Shown: positions 861 to 55,459 of the stretch, one piece after another
Layout: each line of letters opens with the position of its first letter
How positions within the stretch are numbered: the first letter of the stretch is position 1
Assembly: GCA_000146465.1 (NCBI GenBank)
Contig: CP001943.1
DNA length: 64,000 nt
Reading direction: 5' to 3' (one strand)
Notes under the pieces: generated by a model
The model's database searches: none
Told to the model about the DNA's origin: nothing
Seen by the model: the letters and a program-made list of their open reading frames with translations, nothing else
Program-made: the position numbers and the translations under genes

Positions 861-1793
861 TCATTTATTCTTGTCCAAAAACTCCATGGCCTTTATCCCG
901 CATATGGCCCCTGAAGCTGCAGCCGTCACAGCCTGGCGGTACTTCCTATCGCAGACATCTCCTGCTGCAAAAAGGCCCGGAACACTTGTGCATGCATCGT
1001 CCTTCACAACAATGTATCCGTTGGAATCCAGATCTACATTTACACTCTTCAGAAACGAAGTGTTCGGATCATGGCCTATTCCAAAGAACACCCCATCCAT
1101 CGGAATTGTCTTTGTCTCCCCCGTCTCGGTATTGCGGACAACAATCTCTTTAATCTTGTTGGTTCCCTCTGCACGCTCCAGAACATAGGGCGTCATTATC
1201 TCGATGTTCTCTGTGTTCCTAGCCTTCTCAATCATGTCGCTCCTTGCACGGAACTCATTCCTTCGGTGGATGATGTAGACTTTCTTGGCAATGTTTGAAA
1301 GATAAAGCCCCTCCTCCATGGCTGCATCTCCCCCTCCAATCACACAGGTGACTTTGTTTACGTAAATAAACCCATCGCACACTGCACACGAGCTCACACC
1401 TTTCTGCCAGAACTCGTCATCTCCTGTTCCAGGTACAAAAAGCCGTCTTGCAGAGGCCCCTGTGGCAACAATAACAATCCTTGCCTTTTTCTCTCCTTTC
1501 TCACTGGAAACCACAAACCACTCATCCTCCTTCCTCACGTCCGAAACCGTCTCCTTGACAACCCGGAGTCCCCTCGAGACTGCATGTTCTTTCATCAGCT
1601 GGGTGAGTTCTGGCCCCTCAATTCCCCCCGGAAACCCTGGATAGTTATCTACCGACGTTGTTGTGGTAAGTTGGCCTCCTGGCCCATTATTTCCTATGTA
1701 CCCTCCCTCAAAAAGCAAAGGGTTTCCCCTCATCGTATACAGTGCTGCATTATAGGCTGCTGGCCCACTTCCTATAATAACAATGTTTTCCAT
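861..1793 (-). CDS. TRR1: thioredoxin reductase (low-Mr type, CAVC active site)
   Basis: MENIVIIGSGPAAY Rossmann start, CAVCDG redox motif and GGGDAAMEE NADPH site. The ORF-track start at 1817 is a TTG; the first ATG is at 1793. Confidence 0.85.
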   Translation of the reverse strand: MENIVIIGSGPAAYNAALYTMRGNPLLFEGGYIGNNGPGGQLTTTTSVDNYPGFPGGIEGPELTQLMKEHAVSRGLRVVKETVSDVRKEDEWFVVSSEKGEKKARIVIVATGASARRLFVPGTGDDEFWQKGVSSCAVCDGFIYVNKVTCVIGGGDAAMEEGLYLSNIAKKVYIIHRRNEFRARSDMIEKARNTENIEIMTPYVLERAEGTNKIKEIVVRNTETGETKTIPMDGVFFGIGHDPNTSFLKSVNVDLDSNGYIVVKDDACTSVPGLFAAGDVCDRKYRQAVTAAASGAICGIKAMEFLDKNK

Positions 1794-1851
1794 TGGGGCT
1801 TGATCCCGTCCGAACAATATCTCGCTAGGTCTTCCAATAATTAAGGCTAGA

Positions 1852-3250: not shown

Positions 3251-3748
3251 CTAGATTTCCCTGAACTCCCCCTCCCTAAGCCTTACTGCAGAGGGTCCTT
3301 CGACATGCTCTCCATCTCTCACCACTATACAGTGTTCTCCCTTGTACTTCATGGCTTCAAACCTAATCCCATCCTTGGACACATATCCATACACACTTTG
3401 TAGAATTCCACAGATCATTTCCAGGCATTCCTCTTCTTTTCCTGTGTACTGAAGTAACGGGAGCCTTCCCAGACTGATGATACCTTGATTGTGTGTGGGG
3501 TGGAACGAGAAGTAGTATGGAAAGAAAGACTCCGATATGTCTTTTGATACTTCTCCTAAACCCATAGGCTTTTCCGGCTTGCCAGTGAAGAAAAAGTCGT
3601 CTGCCATCCTTTCACCGATCCTCTTTCCAATTGTAAATAACCTCTCTCTACTTCCTTCTGGCCCATCCTTTATGACTTTGTTGATGAATGATGTATACAT
3701 CAATCCAAAGACGTCATGGTTCACTTTCTGGCCATCCTCCCTAGACAT
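3251..3748 (-). CDS. TRAPP complex subunit, Bet3-fold family (Bet3/Trs31/Trs33)
   Basis: 165 aa. DVFGLMYTSFINKVIKD...LFTIGKRIGERMADDF and ...CLEMICGILQSVYGYVSKDGIRFEA resemble the two conserved blocks of Bet3-family TRAPP subunits. Confidence 0.5.
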   Translation of the reverse strand: MSREDGQKVNHDVFGLMYTSFINKVIKDGPEGSRERLFTIGKRIGERMADDFFFTGKPEKPMGLGEVSKDISESFFPYYFSFHPTHNQGIISLGRLPLLQYTGKEEECLEMICGILQSVYGYVSKDGIRFEAMKYKGEHCIVVRDGEHVEGPSAVRLREGEFREI

Positions 3749-3779
3749 TCAGGGCTAGTCTGCAAACCCTCAATACAAG

Positions 3780-4232
3780 ATGCAGAGCAGTAGCCACAGG
3801 GCCGGAAAAGACGCCTCCCAGGAAGGTCTGGAGTCTGTGGAGTTTCTCGACCATCTTGCAGATATCCAAATGCATTGCACGGCAACCAGCCTTCCGGCTC
3901 TGTATGAGGTGGCTGTGAAAGGGATGATGAGCTATGCAGTAAGAATACCACCGGCGGCCCAAGGGACCGGAAGAGTTGAGCTACAGGAAGGATCTTCCGA
4001 AATGAACATGGTGGGACTTCTAACATATTTCATTGATATGATGTATGGAGAAGGCCTTGTTGTCTCCGAAGTCTCTGTACAGCTAAAGGATGGCCATCTT
4101 TTTTGCGACTATTCCGTGGCAAGCGGATCCGAATGCCAAAGCCTCTGTGAAATCAAAGCAGTTACTTTATGTGGTTTGAAAATATTTGAGGAGGAGAATG
4201 TGTTCCATCTCTACTGCATCTTCGATGTTTGA
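3780..4232 (+). CDS. archease (RtcB RNA-ligase cofactor)
   Basis: VEFLDHLADIQMHCTATSLPALYEVAVKGMMSYAV corresponds to the archease signature [33 protein letters not shown]. The C-terminal EIKAVTLCGLKIFEEENVFHLYCIFDV corresponds to EVKAITYSAMQVYNEENPEVFVIIDI. Confidence 0.7.
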   Translation: MQSSSHRAGKDASQEGLESVEFLDHLADIQMHCTATSLPALYEVAVKGMMSYAVRIPPAAQGTGRVELQEGSSEMNMVGLLTYFIDMMYGEGLVVSEVSVQLKDGHLFCDYSVASGSECQSLCEIKAVTLCGLKIFEEENVFHLYCIFDV

Positions 4233-4301: not shown

Positions 4302-4961
4302 TCATTTCTTCTCCGGTTGCCCAGTCTCTGTAACCTCTATGAAGTTGTAGTTCAGGAGATCTGTAGGAGGCTTTGTCTCTTTCTCTTCCTTTTCAGGGCC
4401 CTGGAGTCTTTTCAAAGTTGTCTGGAATCGGCTCCTTAGAGACTCCAGATCCTTTGAGATCTTCTCCAAGGCTTTAAGTTCTTCTCCTATCTCTTTTATC
4501 TCGGCGCGGGTTAGAGAGATCTCTTTCTTCGGGCTCAACGGCTTGAGGAGAAATGATGCAGAGATCGGAGTTTCAAAAGTAAGCTCCGACTGGACTTCAG
4601 GCTTGGGGGCATCATCCGAGACTGTTTTTGACTCGTGATACCTCGAAGGAGTTGTTTTTTTCTCGACTTCGCTAAGAATACTCGGCAGCTTCTGCTCCGC
4701 ATTTGAATTCAAGACCACATTTTTCTTCCCAGAGTCCTCCTCAACCACTATCACAGTCTTCTTCCTGGGGGCGGGATTCTCTAAATCTTTGGAATGAGAT
4801 GGACTGTGCTTTCCCTTGGTAGGCAGGAGTCTGTGATGCTCATCCTTCACAGCAACCTCCAAAAACTTTTTGAAGATGTTATCTGTGGACTTGGTGGAAG
4901 AGTCCTCTGCACTGCAGAACACACTAAAGGTCAAGGTCATCGAGACCATCAGAAGCCTCAT
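4302..4961 (-). CDS. hypothetical secreted protein: signal peptide then a Lys/Glu/Ser/Pro-rich low-complexity region and a C-terminal coiled coil
   Basis: MRLLMVSMTLTFSVFCSAEDSS is a signal-peptide-like N-terminus. The remainder has no Cys and is charged and disordered. It ends in a heptad-like EIKEIGEELKALEKISKDLESLRSRFQTTLKRL. I recognise no domain. Confidence 0.5.
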   Translation of the reverse strand: MRLLMVSMTLTFSVFCSAEDSSTKSTDNIFKKFLEVAVKDEHHRLLPTKGKHSPSHSKDLENPAPRKKTVIVVEEDSGKKNVVLNSNAEQKLPSILSEVEKKTTPSRYHESKTVSDDAPKPEVQSELTFETPISASFLLKPLSPKKEISLTRAEIKEIGEELKALEKISKDLESLRSRFQTTLKRLQGPEKEEKETKPPTDLLNYNFIEVTETGQPEKK

Positions 4962-5058: not shown

Positions 5059-5847
5059 ATGGATTTTGTTCCTCCAGCCAAGCAGAGAGAGCTGAGGTCT
5101 GCACTCGAGAAGATAGAGTCCGGCATAGTGGTGGTCCACGGGCCTCCGGGGTCTTCGAAGACTTACAGCATAGAGAGGACGGCTCAGGGCTTGGGCTTGT
5201 CCATAGAATATATCGAAGATGTCGGGATGTACAAAAGTATGCTTCCCATCCGGAATGCCATATGTCTTACAGACATGGATGACTATGAATACTTGTCCAG
5301 GCATAGAAAAAGACTGGAGAAAATGAAGAACTTGGTGATTGAGACTAGAACATTGTTCTCCATTGGGAAAATACTTCCAAATGCCACCATTGTGAATTTC
5401 GGAAAGATCTCAAGTAGGAAGATCCAGAAGTTTTACAATCTAAATGAAAAGGAGGCTTTGAAGGTGGGAGAAAACCTCCATGCTGTTGGGTTCTGTAAGT
5501 ATGGTATAAGAAGCGAGACTGTTTCAATATTCCATCTACTTGGAAAGCTGTTCCACTCGAAAGAAACAGATGTCCCAAAGGCTGCCGAAATGATCAATGT
5601 GTATGGGCGAGACCGATTTATTGGGTATTTGATCGAGAACTGCACATCTTTCATGTCTATTAAAGACATTCACAAGCTTATCGATGGAATTAGCCTTGAG
5701 GACATAGGAGAAATGCATCTGGAGCATTTGATTTGGGTGGTTTTGAGCTCGGTGAAGGTAGGCCCAAGGAGGTTTTTCAGCTTCCGGTCGTGGAAGGGGG
5801 CCGTCTTAAGTGAGCACACATGTAGCAACCTTTGCATGAACAGATAG
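5059..5847 (+). CDS. P-loop NTPase, AAA+-like (possible Rad17/Rad24- or RFC-like clamp-loader relative)
   Basis: Walker A IVVVHGPPGSSKTYS close to the N-terminus, as in clamp-loader subunits. The rest is divergent. CCC precedes the ATG. Confidence 0.35.
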   Translation: MDFVPPAKQRELRSALEKIESGIVVVHGPPGSSKTYSIERTAQGLGLSIEYIEDVGMYKSMLPIRNAICLTDMDDYEYLSRHRKRLEKMKNLVIETRTLFSIGKILPNATIVNFGKISSRKIQKFYNLNEKEALKVGENLHAVGFCKYGIRSETVSIFHLLGKLFHSKETDVPKAAEMINVYGRDRFIGYLIENCTSFMSIKDIHKLIDGISLEDIGEMHLEHLIWVVLSSVKVGPRRFFSFRSWKGAVLSEHTCSNLCMNR

Positions 5848-6590: not shown

Positions 6591-6930
6591 CAAGAGCAAA
6601 AGAGACAAAAATAAAACATTACAATAAAAGACTAGTCGGAACACAGCAAAGCCTTGTTCCAAAGGGAACATCTGTCATCAATGAGATGAAGAAACATCTC
6701 GGCTTCCATTTGGCTTGCTGCCACAACTCGTCATTCTAGCCTCGTGGGAATGCAATTGCTGCATTGTGACGTTTCTGGTTAACTAAACAAATGATTCTGA
6801 ATAGTATCCTCGACGCAAGGGCATAAGGCTCCTCGGAATTTATCTACCATTCAAAACGTTTTTCTACGTTCAGGAGGCAGAATTGCTTCTTCTGCAGTAA
6901 CTCCTTAAAAGCGAAAAGAACACCCAGAGC

Positions 6931-9687: not shown

Positions 9688-9758
9688 TGGAGTTGCCAGG
9701 AATCGAACCCGGGCCAACTGCGTGCAAAGCAGGTATCATCCCACTAGACCACAACCCC
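9688..9758 (-). tRNA. tRNA-Ala (anticodon UGC)
   Basis: Reverse complement: GGGGTTGTGGTCTAGTGGGATGATACCTGCTTTGCACGCAGTTGGCCCGGGTTCGATTCCTGGCAACTCC plus discriminator A. Acceptor stem is 7 bp with the G3:U70 Ala identity pair. T-arm is CCGGG-TTCGATT-CCTGG. Anticodon loop is TTTGCAC, giving UGC. D-loop is AGTGGG. CCA is not encoded. The D-stem pairs poorly in my manual fold. Confidence 0.7.
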
Positions 9759-11361: not shown

Positions 11362-12840
11362 ATGGATAGAATCGAAAGATTTCTGGGGAGAAGGCCAGTG
11401 AAAGGCCGACGCAAAGTCCAGTCCCAAGGCAAGGAGTTCTTGATAACAAAAGAGGATGTGAAGCTCATAAGGAGCTACAAGAAGAACATCTGCATGGATC
11501 CAGATGTCGATCTGTACAGGCCGTTGAACTTAAGTTTCAGCAGAAAGACGATGAACGAAGGAATGGAAACAAGGAAGAAAGTGGTGGTACCGAGAGCCGG
11601 AGGAAGGCCAAAGAAGAAAGAAAGAAGCATCCGAAAAGAAGTTAAGAAAAGGGATAAGAACGAGATTGTGGACATTTGGGAGGAAGAGGGTCTTGAGGAG
11701 CTGAATAGTTATGAACAGGACATGGTTGTAAAAGTGGGGGATGCATACACAGGGGCTGTGGAGGCACTAAGATATGGAAGAGAAGATCTTGAAGGCAGCC
11801 TAAGAAGGATATACTTGAGGCTCTACGAGCCACGAGATGGAAAGAATTACAGGCTAAGAGATCTTATCAAGGAACTGCCTAAGACAGAGACCCTAAGGCC
11901 GTTTCCAGAGGAGATTGGATTGTCGTTTAAGTTTTCGAAGGCAATCCGTGTTGGAATCAGCCAAGATTTCAAGAAATTTGGAGTGGGAGAAGGAAGGAAG
12001 CTTGGGATTTACGAGTTTAAAAACTTTGTAAAGCTGAGACATATCCTCTTTGATTCGGAGATACGGAAGATAATGTTTGCAAGGAATGGGTCTATATGTA
12101 CGTTGCTAGCAGACAACACCATCTGTGTTGTGGACGATATTTATGGAGGAGATGCGGAGAGTTCCAAGGAATCTTTTATTTCCAAGGAATTTCCTGCGTG
12201 GAGCAGAAAGGAGGCAGAAGAGGGAGCAGAAAGGAATGCATTTGTGTGCACGGTGATAAATCCCGAGGGAAAGATAAATGATATAGAAGCCCATGAAGAT
12301 GGTAAGCATATTATTGCAGTTTGTGGAAAGAAGATTATGGTCTACAATCTCAAGGAACGGATAGGGCGGGAAGTTCTAAGGGTCCGGGGAGCCACGCCTT
12401 TGAAGGCCAAGTTCCATAGATCTTTGAGCACAATGATTGTTTCCACAACAAATTCGTTAATCATCTACGATCTTGTGTCCAAGGAAATAGTAAGGGAAGC
12501 CAAGGAGTTTTCGTTTGTCCTTGACTTCTTTAGTGTTGAGGAAAGTAAGGTGGCTGTGGTAAACAACACGAACAAAATAATTCTGTACGATTGGTTGAAA
12601 AACAATGTGCAAAGAACCATGCTTCAAGAGGATGTGGGGATGGAGGTGGTGCAGCATGGAAGACTCAATCTGATGTGTGTTGCATATCCCACGGAGATGG
12701 TTGTTTTCTACAACGACGTAACAAACGACCTGGTGGTTCCTGTAAAAAGGATTCCGGGAAGGTATAGAGATATTTCATTCCATCCGCATCTTCCCTGGCT
12801 GTATGGAGTCGGAGGAAATAGACTGGATGTGTTTACGTGA
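11362..12840 (+). CDS. ERB1: ribosome biogenesis protein Erb1/BOP1 (BOP1NT plus a reduced WD region)
   Basis: FLITKEDVKLIRSYKKNICMDPDVDLYRP matches BOP1NT ([27 protein letters not shown]). The C-terminus MVVFYNDVTNDLVVPVKRIPGRYRDISFHPHLPWLYGVGGNRLDVFT matches the BOP1 C-terminus (...LLVPVKVLKGH...[24 protein letters not shown]). It is shortened to 492 aa. Confidence 0.8.
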   Translation: MDRIERFLGRRPVKGRRKVQSQGKEFLITKEDVKLIRSYKKNICMDPDVDLYRPLNLSFSRKTMNEGMETRKKVVVPRAGGRPKKKERSIRKEVKKRDKNEIVDIWEEEGLEELNSYEQDMVVKVGDAYTGAVEALRYGREDLEGSLRRIYLRLYEPRDGKNYRLRDLIKELPKTETLRPFPEEIGLSFKFSKAIRVGISQDFKKFGVGEGRKLGIYEFKNFVKLRHILFDSEIRKIMFARNGSICTLLADNTICVVDDIYGGDAESSKESFISKEFPAWSRKEAEEGAERNAFVCTVINPEGKINDIEAHEDGKHIIAVCGKKIMVYNLKERIGREVLRVRGATPLKAKFHRSLSTMIVSTTNSLIIYDLVSKEIVREAKEFSFVLDFFSVEESKVAVVNNTNKIILYDWLKNNVQRTMLQEDVGMEVVQHGRLNLMCVAYPTEMVVFYNDVTNDLVVPVKRIPGRYRDISFHPHLPWLYGVGGNRLDVFT

Positions 12841-27731: not shown

Positions 27732-28241
27732 CTATTTACTTTTCAAAAGACCTTGAAGATCGTCGAGAAACTCCTCATGGATAAGCCTTCCGTTGGAATC
27801 AAAGAGGTCAAACATCGATTTGGTGTACTTACTAGGAATGAGCTTGTTTTTGTTGTAGACCATTATTACATATGTGGGATCAGGTGCACTCACACTTGTG
27901 GAAACCACCCGGTCCTTGAATACCATTGAAGAGCCTGTCCATCGAAAGTAGATTTCTCCAAGAATGTTGATTACGAAATAGATTAGAGTTAATATAGTTA
28001 TGACTTGTTTGTGATACTCAAACTCCGATGTCAAGGAAAAATATGCAACTGCTGAGGCAATGACAGTCGAAATCAGCCCTATTGCTATTTTAATGTCTGT
28101 AGAGACCTTAGACTGCTTGGAATTCCCCACATTTTCCATGAAGTCTCGGATGACATCATCGAGAATAATCTTCAGCTCGCTTAGGTTGTATATGTCTCCT
28201 CTGAGCGGGTTTTTGTTGTACTTGGCTTTTAAGTTATCCAT
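27732..28241 (-). CDS. signal peptidase complex subunit 2 (SPCS2/Spc2)-like
   Basis: Two adjacent TMs (IAIGLISTVIASAVAYFSL; ITILTLIYFVINILGEIYF) followed by YTKSMFDLFDSNGRLIHEEFLDDLQGL (compare human SPCS2 [27 protein letters not shown]). I chose the ATG at 28241 because GGG follows it on the plus strand. An upstream ATG at 28319 would overlap the MCM4 start. Confidence 0.5.
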   Translation of the reverse strand: MDNLKAKYNKNPLRGDIYNLSELKIILDDVIRDFMENVGNSKQSKVSTDIKIAIGLISTVIASAVAYFSLTSEFEYHKQVITILTLIYFVINILGEIYFRWTGSSMVFKDRVVSTSVSAPDPTYVIMVYNKNKLIPSKYTKSMFDLFDSNGRLIHEEFLDDLQGLLKSK

Positions 28242-28285
28242 AGAGGGTAAATATTTTACAAAGGTGTTAACTAGGATAGGAGACA

Positions 28286-28289
28286 CCCC
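28286..28289 (+). promoter_or_regulatory. CCCC motif 2 nt upstream of the MCM4 ATG
   Basis: agacaCCCCaaATG. Confidence 0.4.
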
Positions 28290-28291
28290 AA

Positions 28292-30418
28292 ATGGATTCC
28301 GATCAACAGTCCTCTGCATTTTCGTTCTATGATGCTAGTCAGGAGAATCTGTTGAATTTTACGCCTTCGCAAGGAGACCTCAGTTCTACTATCCTTCCTA
28401 TAGTGGAGACAGAGAGAGTAAAGGTGATCTGGGGTACTACGATAAACATCCAAGAGACATCCGAGCGGTTCAAGGAGTTTATTAGAAAGAATAGAGACTA
28501 TCATGACGTTCTTGAGCAAATGGATCTTACTCAAGAGTTTGTGTTTGATCTCAATTGTGAAGATCTTGATCCAGATCTTCGAAGTCAGCTTGCAACATAT
28601 CCTCAGGAGATGCTTCCGATTCTCCAGGGATCATTACAGGAAATATATGTGGAGAACTTTCCAAGCTTCAATGGGACCATCAGAATCAGACCCTTTGGAA
28701 TAGGAAAGGCTCTCTCAATAAGAAACATCAATCCAAATGATATCGACAGGATTGTGCAGATTACGGGAATGGTCATCAGGTCGTCGTCTGTGATTCCCGA
28801 GATTGTAAGGGCTTTTTTCCGATGCTCAAAGTGCATGGATGAGTGTTTTGTAGAAAGCATAAGGAATGTGATTGAGGAGCCAAGCAAGTGCAAGTGTGGA
28901 GGGAAGTATTCTCAGCAGTTAGTTCACAATTCAAGTGAATTTGAAGACAAGCAGATATCCAGGATACAAGAACTCCCTGAGGGTATTCCTGATGGAACAA
29001 CACCCATGGCTATGACAATAGTCTGCAGAAACGAGTTTGTTGACGGGCTTGTTCCAGGAGATAGAGTTAAGGTGATAGGAATTTTGAAAGCAACACCGGT
29101 GAGACTCAACCCTGTGATGAAGAAAATCAAGAGTACATTCAGGACTTATCTCGATCTTCTCAGCTACGAGGTAATGAATAAGAAGGTCAAGGAACGGGAT
29201 CCCATTTACAAGATTGATGAGCTTCGAAAAAACCCTAAAGTATATGAGGTGTTGGCGAATTCTATAGCACCCTCTGTGTGTGGAATGGAAGACACAAAGA
29301 AGGCGTTGCTCCTTCAACTATTTGGAGGAGTTCGAAAAGAATTGGGCAGTTCAAGGCTTAGAGGAGACATAAATATACTTCTTGCAGGGGATCCAGGAAT
29401 ATCGAAATCACAGCTACTGAGCTTTATACATAGAACGTCTGAAAGAGGGATGTACACCAGTGGAAGAGGATCAAGTGCAGTTGGACTGACGGCTAGTGTG
29501 GCTAAGGATCCAGATAGTGGGCAATTTATCCTGGAGTCTGGGGCTCTTGTCTTATCTGATAACGGAGTGTGTTGTATCGATGAATTCGACAAGATGAGCG
29601 ATAGCACAAGAAGTGTATTGCATGAGGTAATGGAGCAGCAGACGGTGTCGGTTGCAAAGGCGGGAATTATAACCACATTAAATGCAAGATGTTCCATTCT
29701 TGCAAGCTGCAATCCTATTGAAAGCAAGTACAATCCTCGGAAAAGCATAATTGAAAACATCAATCTTCCTCCCACCTTGCTAAGCAGATTTGATGTTGTG
29801 TGTTTGTTAATAGATAGATCTGATGAATTCCAGGACAGAACCATAGGAGACCATATTGTGTCTCTATATTCCGAGGAGAGGGGAAAAACGGAATGTGTTG
29901 ATGCCGACCTTCTTAAGGCATATGTGAAGGAAGCAAGGAAGATAGTTCCACGATTGACGGCCGAAAGTATGAGGTTGCTGACGCAAGCATATGTGGATCT
30001 TAGGCAAATGGACAATGGAAAAACAATAACCGCAACAACAAGACAATTGGAAAGTTTAATCCGCCTGAGTGAGGCACATGCAAGGATGAGGTTTTCAAGC
30101 ACTGTCGAGGCAAAGGATGTTAAAGAGGCAGTGAGAATAATAAGAGAAAGCCTTCTTATGTATGCGATTGATCCATCTACTGGAAAGGTAGATATGGATA
30201 TGATAATTACAGGAAGAAGTACATTTAGAAACAAGATGCTGGAGAGCCTGAAGGATGCAATCCTTCTAATGATGCGAGACCGAATCGAGGTCTCTGAAAT
30301 AGTTAGGAAGACAGGTGCAAATGAAAAGATGGTGAAAGAGGCCCTAGAGGAGCTTGCACAGGAAGATAAAATAATGACTTCTGGACACGAGTCTTGTTAC
30401 GAAAGGATAAGAGACTAG
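28292..30418 (+). CDS. MCM4: MCM2-7 family replicative helicase subunit, most like MCM4
   Basis: MCM box IDEFDKMSDSTRSVLHEVMEQQTVSVAKAGIITTLNARCSILASCNP, arginine finger SRFDVV and a C4 zinc finger (CSKCMDEC...CKCG). The N-terminal KVIWGTTINIQETSERFKEF resembles the MCM4-specific VIWGTDVNV block. Confidence 0.75.
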   Translation: MDSDQQSSAFSFYDASQENLLNFTPSQGDLSSTILPIVETERVKVIWGTTINIQETSERFKEFIRKNRDYHDVLEQMDLTQEFVFDLNCEDLDPDLRSQLATYPQEMLPILQGSLQEIYVENFPSFNGTIRIRPFGIGKALSIRNINPNDIDRIVQITGMVIRSSSVIPEIVRAFFRCSKCMDECFVESIRNVIEEPSKCKCGGKYSQQLVHNSSEFEDKQISRIQELPEGIPDGTTPMAMTIVCRNEFVDGLVPGDRVKVIGILKATPVRLNPVMKKIKSTFRTYLDLLSYEVMNKKVKERDPIYKIDELRKNPKVYEVLANSIAPSVCGMEDTKKALLLQLFGGVRKELGSSRLRGDINILLAGDPGISKSQLLSFIHRTSERGMYTSGRGSSAVGLTASVAKDPDSGQFILESGALVLSDNGVCCIDEFDKMSDSTRSVLHEVMEQQTVSVAKAGIITTLNARCSILASCNPIESKYNPRKSIIENINLPPTLLSRFDVVCLLIDRSDEFQDRTIGDHIVSLYSEERGKTECVDADLLKAYVKEARKIVPRLTAESMRLLTQAYVDLRQMDNGKTITATTRQLESLIRLSEAHARMRFSSTVEAKDVKEAVRIIRESLLMYAIDPSTGKVDMDMIITGRSTFRNKMLESLKDAILLMMRDRIEVSEIVRKTGANEKMVKEALEELAQEDKIMTSGHESCYERIRD

Positions 30419-43261: not shown

Positions 43262-44218
43262 ATGATAATAAGAATCGATCGGAAGCACATAAGTAGTTCT
43301 ATTGAGGAGTGGTTCCAACTCCTGAAGTCCAACAACGATTCTTTGGAGGATGGAAAGACCTCTGGATGCGATCCATCAATGGAGTACGAAATAGAAGTAA
43401 AAGAAAGTATCGGGAAAAAAATAGCCTTGGTTACTGTAAACAGGGTTGGTATAAAGCATGAAGTGTCTTTGGATAAGATCGAAGAAACTCTTCTGGAAGT
43501 TGTTGGGACCCTTCTTGGACATGAACTGGTGGTTATTCATGGATTTACAGTTAAGGATCAAAGCGGAGAAAAGACGAAACCGATTATTCCGATCTTCTTC
43601 AGATCGACTCTCGGGATTCAAATTCCCAAGAGAATGGGGTATTTAAAGAACGATGGAGCCGGAATTCCAGAGATCGACGAGAGTATGATGGTTCCATTTG
43701 TGCATACCAGTCCAATTTTAAAGTCATTACTAAACTCAAGACCTTTGAGGTTCTCAGGCGAGGGTGTAAAAGCTTTGTTAGTTCTCTACAACGGATCTAC
43801 ATTCATCATCCCAGATACAGCTAGAATTATTCCTATGATCCGTGGAATGCTTTCCAGGGAAAAAATGGGAGAGTTTCTCAAGCTTCTCAAAAAGTTCCCA
43901 TTTAAGTTTGTTGAAACCTTTATAAAAGCATATATGCAACCTTCTTCACTTGAAGTTAACAAGGAGTTGAGTGGTTGCTTTTCAGAATTTCAAAACAACC
44001 TTACCAAGCTTCACATCAAATGCATACACAAGATAGTATCTAATGCTCCTGTGTTTTTGGATGCTCGGGACAAGATTACTGAAAGAATCGAGAAGTTTTA
44101 TATTTACAATGCAAAAGGATTTAAGAGAAAAAGGGGGGAATATCTTAAGTGTAGAGAGGAGCTTTACATAGACAAGAATCCCATTGGATCTTTGAAGAGG
44201 TATTTCCGAGATCTCTAA
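43262..44218 (+). CDS. hypothetical protein (318 aa), no recognisable domain
   Basis: Uninterrupted ORF from an ATG preceded by CCC. Globular alpha/beta composition. Possibly lineage-specific. Confidence 0.4.
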   Translation: MIIRIDRKHISSSIEEWFQLLKSNNDSLEDGKTSGCDPSMEYEIEVKESIGKKIALVTVNRVGIKHEVSLDKIEETLLEVVGTLLGHELVVIHGFTVKDQSGEKTKPIIPIFFRSTLGIQIPKRMGYLKNDGAGIPEIDESMMVPFVHTSPILKSLLNSRPLRFSGEGVKALLVLYNGSTFIIPDTARIIPMIRGMLSREKMGEFLKLLKKFPFKFVETFIKAYMQPSSLEVNKELSGCFSEFQNNLTKLHIKCIHKIVSNAPVFLDARDKITERIEKFYIYNAKGFKRKRGEYLKCREELYIDKNPIGSLKRYFRDL

Positions 44219-48737: not shown

Positions 48738-49313
48738 TTAATCACCTCGATCTTCCCTGGCTGCTGAAAGCCTTTCTACCTTTCCTCCAATGAAATCTCT
48801 TATTCCTCTTTCGTTAATCGTATGAAATACATTCTTCTTTAAAGCTTCCCTATCCAACTCTAGAACATTGTCTTTACACTTTACAAATAAATTGAATAGG
48901 GCCACCTCGTTATAGAACGGATGGTCTATATTACACAGATCCATTTCTTCTTCAGGCCTGTCATAAAGAATAAAGTTAAGCATCTTCCCATATTCCCTAT
49001 CCAGACTACTCAATGAGGAGGTTGTCTTATTTCTGGTGCAGAAGTCATAATGAACTCGGAGAGCAAAAGAAATGTCTCCTGTGATTCCCTTTTCGCTTTT
49101 AAGAATTCCATTGATGATTCTTCTTTCGTCTGATGTATTTTCCCGATTGGCAGATGATTTGAGCATACCCATTATTTTTCTCTTTAGAGATATCTCCGGA
49201 CCAAAATCCATACCGGGATCAAGAATACTTACCAGCTTATCGTATCCGTAAATATCTCTTTTCGCCAGATTCTTCCATGCTGTCTTCTTTCTCTCGATGG
49301 CTTCCTTAATCAT
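48738..49313 (-). CDS. hypothetical protein (192 aa from the first ATG)
   Basis: The ORF-track start at 49367 is a TTG; the first ATG is at 49313. I recognise no domain. Confidence 0.35.
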   Translation of the reverse strand: MIKEAIERKKTAWKNLAKRDIYGYDKLVSILDPGMDFGPEISLKRKIMGMLKSSANRENTSDERRIINGILKSEKGITGDISFALRVHYDFCTRNKTTSSLSSLDREYGKMLNFILYDRPEEEMDLCNIDHPFYNEVALFNLFVKCKDNVLELDREALKKNVFHTINERGIRDFIGGKVERLSAAREDRGD

Positions 49314-49651
49314 TTGCTGTCTCCTATTTCCACAAATGACGGGGTTGTATTTCCCCCGAGTAACCAAGGATACATACAGCTTCAGGTTCTCTGATCTCCT
49401 CTGGCCCTTAAAATTACTCGAGGATCGGAGGCAACCCTTTCCACATATGATCTTTTTCTCTTGGCATTCGGATGCAGATATAGATGTGATTTATCTGAGA
49501 TTCTTATTCTTACAGCTGTAAACTTCGTTCTGTTTCCTACTAGCATGTATCCCTCACACAAACAGATAGAAACCTTTCTTGAAAAGAAGATCCCATAATC
49601 CAAAATCATTCGCTAGGGTTGGTTGAAAAATTAAAAACACCACATCCAGAG

Positions 49652-53768: not shown

Positions 53769-53956
53769 GAGGGAGTTTCGGCAGAAATGGTTTTAGTCGA
53801 AATAAGGAAGCAAGTTTTTGATTTGGGGCAATTCCCACACACCCGAAAATGAAAACCTAAAGCATCAGGCAGTTGCATACATGGCAGAGGCGAAAGCATG
53901 CCACACTTGAGAAAGACTTAAGGTTCTTATAAATGTTATTAATTTCTCCACCCTTT

Positions 53957-55459
53957 ATGACTAAACAGAAGTTTGGGCTAACAGCCAAAAAAGAAGAAGA
54001 TTTTTCCGAATGGTATGTACAGGTTATAACAAAAGGAGAGATGATAGATTACTACGAGATTAAAGGATGCTATGTGATGCGCCCCCAGGGACAGTTTGTC
54101 TGGAAGTGTATCCAGAAATGGTTTACCGAAAAGATTGAAGAACTTGGTGTCCAAGAATGCTATTTTCCCATGCTAGTTCCCAAGTCGACGCTTGAAAAAG
54201 AGAAGAACCATGTGGAAAATTTTTCCCCCGAAGTAGCATGGATTACTAAGTGTGGAAATGAGGTCTTGGGAGATCCAGTTGCCGTGCGTCCTACATCCGA
54301 AACAATAATATATCCTTCTTTTTCTAAGTGGATAAGAAGCCACAGAGATCTTCCTCTAAAAATAAACCAATGGTGTAGTGTGCTGAGATGGGAGCTACAT
54401 GGGACCCTCCCTTTTATAAGAGGGAAGGAGTTTCTATGGCAGGAAGGGCACACAGCTTTTCTGACGAAAGAGGAATCGGATGTGGAGGTTTTTGCAATTC
54501 TGGATCTTTACTCCAGAATATACTCGGAGCTCCTTGCAGTTCCCGTGATAAAAGGAAGAAAGTCAGAAAGCGAGAAGTTTGGGGGAGCAGATTACACCAC
54601 GTCCATTGAAGCCTTTATCCCTGGATCAGGCCGGGGAATTCAAGCGGGAACCTCCCATTCCTTGGGACAGAACTTCTCAAAAATGTTTGATATTAAGGTC
54701 GACACAGAAGAAGGATCCGAAAATAGCAGCTTTGTCTACCAGAACTCCTGGGGGCTAACCACCCGATCCATTGGAATTGCAATTATGATACATTCGGACA
54801 ACCTTGGGTTGGTGCTTCCCCCAAGAGTAGCTATGATTCAGGTTGTTGTTATTCCCTGTGGGATAACAGCATCCTCTTCGGAAGAGGACGTTGAAAGTTT
54901 ACGCACATACATAAGCAAAATACATGCCCAGCTCAAAAACTTCGTTCGTGTGCATGTGGACGATCGGAATAATGTAACTGTTGGATTCAAATTCAATCAT
55001 TGGGAAATAAGAGGGGTTCCGTTAAGGTTAGAGGTTGGGTTCAAAGATATGGCTAACTCGGAAGCTTGCTTAGTTAGAAGGGACACCCGTGCCAAAAAGC
55101 AGGTATCTGTGGAGGATATCGGGCAGACAGTAATGGAGGAAATAGATACCATGCACAACGATATGCTTAGTAGGGCTACCACAGAAAGAGATAGGAGAAT
55201 TTCATATGTAAGAAGCTTCGAGGAGTTTATGTCTTCTCTTGAAAACAAAAAAATGATAATGGCACCGTGGTGTGGAGTTGATAAATGTGAAGCCAACATT
55301 AAATCTAAAACCACAAAGTTTGGGCCCAACGGAAATGTAGTTTCGACTGGGGCAAAGACCTTATGTATTCCTTATGAGGCAAAGTCCTGCAATGGAATGG
55401 AATGTATCAACTGCAACCAGAAGGCTATCCATTATGCTTTATTTGGAAGATCCTACTAA
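53957..55459 (+). CDS. prolyl-tRNA synthetase (eukaryote/archaeal-type class IIa with C-terminal zinc-binding domain)
   Basis: Class II motifs, an anticodon-binding domain and a C-terminal domain ending ...HYALFGRSY. I chose the ATG at 53957 (MTKQKF...) because CCC precedes it. An in-frame ATG at 53933 is also possible. Confidence 0.9.
   Translation: MTKQKFGLTAKKEEDFSEWYVQVITKGEMIDYYEIKGCYVMRPQGQFVWKCIQKWFTEKIEELGVQECYFPMLVPKSTLEKEKNHVENFSPEVAWITKCGNEVLGDPVAVRPTSETIIYPSFSKWIRSHRDLPLKINQWCSVLRWELHGTLPFIRGKEFLWQEGHTAFLTKEESDVEVFAILDLYSRIYSELLAVPVIKGRKSESEKFGGADYTTSIEAFIPGSGRGIQAGTSHSLGQNFSKMFDIKVDTEEGSENSSFVYQNSWGLTTRSIGIAIMIHSDNLGLVLPPRVAMIQVVVIPCGITASSSEEDVESLRTYISKIHAQLKNFVRVHVDDRNNVTVGFKFNHWEIRGVPLRLEVGFKDMANSEACLVRRDTRAKKQVSVEDIGQTVMEEIDTMHNDMLSRATTERDRRISYVRSFEEFMSSLENKKMIMAPWCGVDKCEANIKSKTTKFGPNGNVVSTGAKTLCIPYEAKSCNGMECINCNQKAIHYALFGRSY

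Follow-up and report, generated by a model that had tools for sequence, protein, structure and literature searches.

An intact archease gene in Encephalitozoon intestinalis with a probable role in RtcB-dependent tRNA splicing

Results

Archease gene of E. intestinalis

The 64,000-nucleotide stretch of contig CP001943.1 analyzed here (the window) contains a genuine, intact archease gene, Eint_020930 of Encephalitozoon intestinalis. Taking the evidence as a whole, we consider it very probable that its product acts on the RtcB RNA ligase of the organism, mainly for the joining of tRNA exons. The identification as archease is not new, as the gene is already annotated as encoding an archease-domain protein and the partner pathway is already documented in the lineage.

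The gene is located on the plus strand and encodes a protein of 150 residues (Table 1). An in-frame stop codon is positioned seven codons 5′ of the ATG at 3780, and no other usable start would therefore retain the conserved N-terminus. The protein shares 100% identity with Eint_020930 of E. intestinalis ATCC 50506, which carries the UniRef name "Archease domain-containing protein", and the window therefore belongs to chromosome II of a microsporidian. The remainder of the window is tightly packed with genes encoding HSP90, an ATR-like kinase, MCM, Glu/Gln-tRNA synthetase, DNA ligase I, Sec24, condensin subunits, trehalase, GDI, and others, and this content fits a microsporidian origin. The assignment to a reduced genome of fungal lineage, proposed from the nucleotide sequence in a preliminary description, is thus borne out. 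A literature search returned no paper mentioning archease together with Encephalitozoon, and likewise nothing for HSPC117 with cuniculi.

Table 1 Coordinates of the archease gene, its conserved elements, and other features of the window.
Feature	Coordinates	Strand	Remarks
Pyr_redox_2 gene	861..1817	-	Low-Mr thioredoxin reductase
TRAPP-subunit gene	3251..3748	-	Divergent from archease gene
TRAPP/archease intergenic spacer	3749..3779	.	31 bp between start codons
Archease CDS	3780..4232	+	ATG start, 150 codons and TGA stop; from ORF listing
N-terminal tail, residues 1-18	3780..3833	+	Poorly conserved, predicted to be disordered
N-terminal signature E21-F-L-D24-H25-L-A-D28-I-Q-M-H32	3840..3875	+	Invariant in alignments
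Motif E124-I-K126-A-V-T129	4149..4166	+	Invariant in alignments
D149-V150-stop	4224..4232	+	D149 invariant; ORF ends one residue after
ORF without Pfam match	4302-4961	-	Near archease gene
ORF without Pfam match	5059-5847	+	Near archease gene
U3 snoRNA match	6630-6813	-	Rfam RF01848 ACEA_U3
tRNA-Ala(TGC)	9688..9758	-	Intronless
ORF without Pfam match	11362-12840	+	
SPC25 signal-peptidase ORF	27732-28319	-	Divergent from MCM ORF
MCM ORF	28292-30418	+	Divergent from SPC25 ORF
ORF without Pfam match	43262-44218	+	
ORF without Pfam match	48738-49367	-	
Prolyl-tRNA synthetase ORF	53933..55459		
ARAGORN call, 99-nt tRNA-Val(GAC)	54428..54526	+	Rejected as tRNA

Family membership and predicted fold

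The product of the window gene is an archease family member with, according to its predicted structure, the archease α/β fold. It matches the Pfam family Archease (PF01951) with an E-value of 3.9e-20 and a score of 73 bits, well above the gathering cut-off of 25, over positions 2-136 of the 136-position model. The archease signature read from the sequence in the preliminary description is present, with FLDHLAD at residues 22-28 and EIKAVT at residues 124-129, and the profile comparison proposed there confirms the assignment. The match to the bacterial and archaeal equivalog NF001617 of NCBIfam is weak (26 bits against a threshold of 126), as expected for a divergent eukaryotic member. A sequence search of the PDB identified human archease chains at an E-value of 4e-5.

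An AlphaFold2 model, built on an alignment of 63 diverse archeases, has a mean pLDDT of 89.3 and a pTM of 0.83. When the model was compared with the PDB, all 12 matches at E-values of up to 1e-3 were archeases, originating from human, P. horikoshii, M. thermautotrophicus, and T. maritima; the next hit, unrelated, had an E-value of 0.055. Human archease in complex with RTCB (8odo) ranks first, with a TM-score of 0.77 and an rmsd of 2.1 Å. The model has pLDDT values below 50 at residues 2-7 and 9-15, within the tail of residues 1-18 that is variable or missing in homologues.

Residues required for RtcB activation

In crystal structures of the human RTCB-archease complex, D51, D178, and the terminal carboxylate of I179 of archease bind a third Mn2+ at site C, and K156 and D178 contact the γ-phosphate of GTP (PMC10944509). 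The substitutions D51A and K156A impair the activation of RTCB (PMC10944509). Similarly, the activation of RtcB by P. horikoshii archease is severely reduced by D12A, D141A, and the deletion of I142, as well as by substitutions of H9 and K117 (PMC3973293).

The window protein has all the residues that these experiments identified as necessary for the activation of RtcB: H25, D28, K126, D149, and a C-terminus located one residue past the aspartate. D28 aligns with the ligand of Mn2+ at site C (human D51, P. horikoshii D12), H25 with P. horikoshii H9, and K126 with the γ-phosphate-binding lysine (human K156, P. horikoshii K117). D149 and the terminal carboxylate of V150 align with the metal ligands D178 and I179-COO- of human archease and D141 and I142 of the P. 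horikoshii protein. As in human archease, the reading frame stops exactly one residue past the aspartate, and the free carboxylate ligand is therefore preserved. Residues D24, H25, D28, K126, T129, and D149 are invariant across the alignment of 63 diverse archeases and near-universal in a set of 268, where the signature histidine is found in 267, the aspartate corresponding to D28 in 265, and the lysine in 264 sequences. Since all the residues required for RtcB activation are invariant, the gene looks functional, as judged from its sequence.

Orthologues, conserved gene order, and gene integrity

Orthologues of the window protein, sharing 47-71% identity with it over their full length, occur in E. 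romaleae, E. cuniculi, E. hellem, Ordospora colligata, O. pajunii, and several assembled contigs. For some of them, the name in NCBI or UniRef is already "Archease protein" or "Archease domain-containing protein". The archease gene is divergent from a gene for a TRAPP subunit, and the short spacer between the two is presumably the site of both promoters. The spacer to the convergent gene downstream is 69 bp long. The divergent TRAPP/archease pair is kept in O. colligata, O. pajunii, and a Logan contig, with a larger spacer in Ordospora than in the window. It is flanked by genes for Suf, thioredoxin reductase, and DUF5089 and by genes for CTLH, LSM, and Sel1, and this order recurs in a second E. 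intestinalis assembly, O. colligata, O. pajunii, and the Logan contig. The GC content and GC3 of the archease gene match those of the neighboring genes.

Two gene models in public databases differ from the remaining orthologues at the N-terminus. The O. pajunii model HK407_02g03880 (GCA_021821965.1) is only 104 residues long and starts at an internal methionine. At this locus (1238-1815 of the contig piece), the reading frame is open further upstream and encodes IEFLDHPADVMMHC, which carries the essential IEFLDHPAD motif preceded by a cysteine-rich N-terminal stretch, CNCTCTERCSC...CKCNCC. The short model is an annotation truncation, and decay of the gene, which it might have indicated, is ruled out by the open frame upstream and the DHPAD motif encoded there. 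The E. cuniculi entry (UniRef M1KK48) begins with 31 additional residues that no other orthologue has, and its start was probably called too far upstream.

The archease gene is vertically inherited and under purifying selection, and is neither a relic nor a contaminant, because its residues, fold, synteny, and composition agree. That the open reading frame would be a decaying relic, a chance frame, or foreign or contaminant DNA is extremely improbable. The pronounced divergence of the window protein from other archeases, together with the annotation of the O. pajunii homologue at 104 residues, might suggest such an origin. However, the frame is intact, the catalytic residues are invariant in 15 members of the clade, the syntenic position is conserved in at least three genera or lineages, and the short O. 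pajunii protein is a product of its annotation. The GC and GC3 values, the same as those of the neighbors, and the synteny rule out horizontal transfer and contamination. We regard this origin as already effectively refuted.

An isolated clade with five invariant cysteines

We searched 5.8 billion proteins (word index) and 1.84 billion cluster representatives (exhaustively) with a profile of the 11 closest homologues. In both searches, only proteins of Encephalitozoon, Ordospora, and their relatives reached at least 140 bits among the matches listed. No listed match fell in the range between 140 and 67 bits; outside the clade, the highest-scoring family reached at most 67 bits. The next-best named matches outside the clade are archeases from archaeal and bacterial metagenome-assembled genomes, Asgard among them, and one dictyostelid. 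Few matches are named, and among the best 120-150 none is named as an archease from any other microsporidian genus. Among the matches listed, the Encephalitozoon and Ordospora archeases thus form an isolated, divergent clade.

The clade shares five invariant cysteines, C33, C109, C123, C131, and C146. All five are present in each of the 14 full-length members, and the N-terminally truncated O. pajunii entry has four. None of the 253 other archeases examined carries more than two of them, and inspection of the 150 best representatives by name and for the cysteine signature identified no distant microsporidian archease.

Fast evolution in a compact genome may be all that underlies the isolation and the cysteines. 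We are doubtful, while allowing it some chance, that within Microsporidia a recognizable archease is confined to Encephalitozoon and Ordospora, where it evolves fast, or that the cysteines are a clade-specific redox or metal adaptation of RtcB activation. If archease were confined to this clade, the other microsporidia that possess RtcB would have a eukaryotic ligase operating without archease, a type not known in eukarya according to the literature (PMC4604427).

Other features of the window

The window contains several further features outside the archease locus. A match to U3 snoRNA (57.2 bits, with a gathering score of 55) is positioned in the gap between the CTLH-domain and Sel1-like genes. 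The divergent SPC25 signal-peptidase and MCM open reading frames have 28 bp in common at their 5′ ends; either the coding starts truly overlap, or one of them is an internal ATG. Five open reading frames without a Pfam match appear to encode clade-restricted proteins; similar-sized genes occupy the same positions in Ordospora as the two that adjoin the archease gene.

Discussion

The probable RtcB partner and tRNA substrate

The mechanism of archease, the RtcB and Trl1 state of Microsporidia, and the tRNA introns and absence of Ire1 in E. cuniculi are taken from the literature. According to the Shuman laboratory, Microsporidia encode RtcB and "do not have a recognizable Trl1", unlike other RtcB-bearing fungi (PMC8051265). 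A 2026 review of tRNA ligases also states that RTCB is retained in Microsporidia, and reports that both archease and PYROXD1 came to light through phylogenetic patterns of presence and absence that match those of RTCB (PMC13247085). RtcBs that work without archease are common among bacteria, which is not the case in archaea or eukarya (Desai et al., PMC4604427). Since RTCB is retained in Microsporidia and archease tracks RTCB, a microsporidian archease is what the pattern of co-occurrence predicts. The proposal in the preliminary description that archease marks an RtcB-type ligation pathway in place of Trl1 is therefore supported by published work at the level of the phylum, and it is on this phylum-level literature that the presence of RtcB and the absence of Trl1 in E. 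intestinalis rest. The generalization that fungi lack RtcB is over-simplified, as more than 90 fungal taxa encode it (PMC8051265).

The product of the archease gene is a small α/β protein with a conserved tip formed by D28, K126, D149, and the carboxylate of the C-terminal V150. In all likelihood, this tip enters the active site of the RtcB RNA ligase of the organism, where it would supply the third Mn2+ site and position the γ-phosphate of GTP. The guanylylation of RtcB would thereby be promoted, enabling multiple-turnover ligation of RNA ends carrying a 2′,3′-cyclic phosphate and a 5′-OH. We infer the stimulation of guanylylation and of multiple turnover from the sequence of the window protein, and likewise its interaction with RtcB and the use of tRNA as substrate. 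In the reduced genome, the main, and possibly the only, task of the pair would be the ligation of exon halves once the tRNA splicing endonuclease has cut the few pre-tRNAs that contain introns, with the Trl1/Tpt1-type ligase of other fungi apparently absent in Microsporidia.

Of the 46 tRNA genes of E. cuniculi, two are interrupted by introns, 16 and 42 bp in length, and these two genes also contain introns in Enterocytozoon bieneusi (PMC2607024). By analogy, two such genes would be a sufficient substrate and would explain the retention of archease. The only tRNA gene of the 64-kb window encodes tRNA-Ala(TGC), and no intron-containing tRNA was found there with ARAGORN and Rfam. A 99-nt tRNA-Val(GAC) called by ARAGORN was considered as a candidate intron-bearing tRNA. 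It was rejected as a false positive, since Rfam gives no tRNA match for it and its position is within the open reading frame for prolyl-tRNA synthetase.

To our knowledge, eukaryotes do not keep the prokaryotic rtcB-archease operon. The lack of an RtcB gene in the 64-kb window, as assessed from its gene content and by tblastn with human RTCB (verified against PDB 8odo), is therefore unsurprising. The Pyr_redox_2 gene located three genes upstream of archease was considered as a candidate for PYROXD1, the protector of RTCB, and was rejected, as it encodes a low-Mr thioredoxin reductase (267 bits to TrxR structures).

Possible alternative roles of archease

It is very improbable that the protein is kept for a role independent of RtcB, for instance in assisting, as a chaperone or as a determinant of specificity, a tRNA m5C methyltransferase or some other enzyme acting on nucleic acids. 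The archease of Pyrococcus abyssi raises the specificity of a tRNA m5C methyltransferase, and the initial proposal for archease was that of a general modulator of enzymes acting on nucleic acids, both as related in PMC3973293, which cites Auxilien 2007. A protein-database search with human RTCB, in which the best 120 of 8000 scored candidates were all metazoan and none came from this genome, could also be read in favor of this role. However, the most strictly conserved residues of archease are the Mn2+ and γ-phosphate ligands, which are sensible only inside the active site of RtcB. Moreover, RtcB is reported in Microsporidia (PMC8051265, PMC13247085), and the co-occurrence of archease and RTCB is so tight that one led to the discovery of the other (PMC13247085). 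A second role in addition to the activation of RtcB is possible.

The preliminary description also suggested an Hac1/XBP1-like substrate, which we consider unlikely. RTCB and archease perform XBP1 splicing in animals (PMC13247085), and a search with the profile of the Ire1 RNase domain, Ribonuc_2-5A, found "difficult to place microsporidian RNases" (PMC8104961). Nevertheless, a study of the E. cuniculi kinome found no Ire1 orthologue (PMC2078597), the 64-kb window contains no Ire1-like gene, and the two intron-bearing tRNAs already account for the retention of archease (PMC2607024). We therefore give very little credence to non-conventional mRNA splicing in an unfolded-protein response as an additional, or even the main, function of the pair, and favor the joining of tRNA exons.

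Comparison with known archeases and significance

The window protein belongs to the same Pfam family and has the same fold as human archease, the cofactor of RTCB (ZBTB8OS; 8BTX, 8ODO, 8ODP, 5YZ1), and the two share the ligands D51, K156, D178, and I179-COO- of the human protein, which correspond to D28, K126, D149, and V150-COO-. However, they are only about 25% identical. The window protein lacks most of the animal N-terminal extension and helix 1, its residues 1-18 forming a tail predicted to be disordered, as well as two internal insertions of human archease, and carries the five clade-specific cysteines. The archeases of P. horikoshii (4N2P) and other prokaryotes (MTH1598, TM1083) have the same fold and a similarly compact size of about 140-150 residues, and the functional residues H9, D12, K117, D141, and I142 of the P. 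horikoshii protein are conserved in the window protein. Prokaryotic and Asgard archeases are also its next-best sequence matches outside the clade, among the matches listed. Prokaryotic archease genes are usually part of an operon with rtcB (PMC4604427, PMC3973293), whereas the window gene stands alone, adjoining the TRAPP-subunit gene and unrelated genes. The Encephalitozoon and Ordospora orthologues have the same cysteine signature and synteny as the window gene, and differ from it only by species-level divergence and in their gene models.

The archease of E. intestinalis adds one more case to the tight co-occurrence of archease and RtcB, and conveys little beyond the confirmation of a correct annotation. 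The divergence of the clade and its cysteine signature are of possible interest for the question of how minimal a eukaryotic RtcB-archease system can be. The gene is also one more case of microsporidia keeping the ancestral RtcB route, which was replaced by Trl1/Tpt1 in most other fungi. Antifungals aimed at Trl1/Tpt1 would not apply to microsporidia, the ligase system of which is similar to that of their human host, as already implied previously (PMC8051265).
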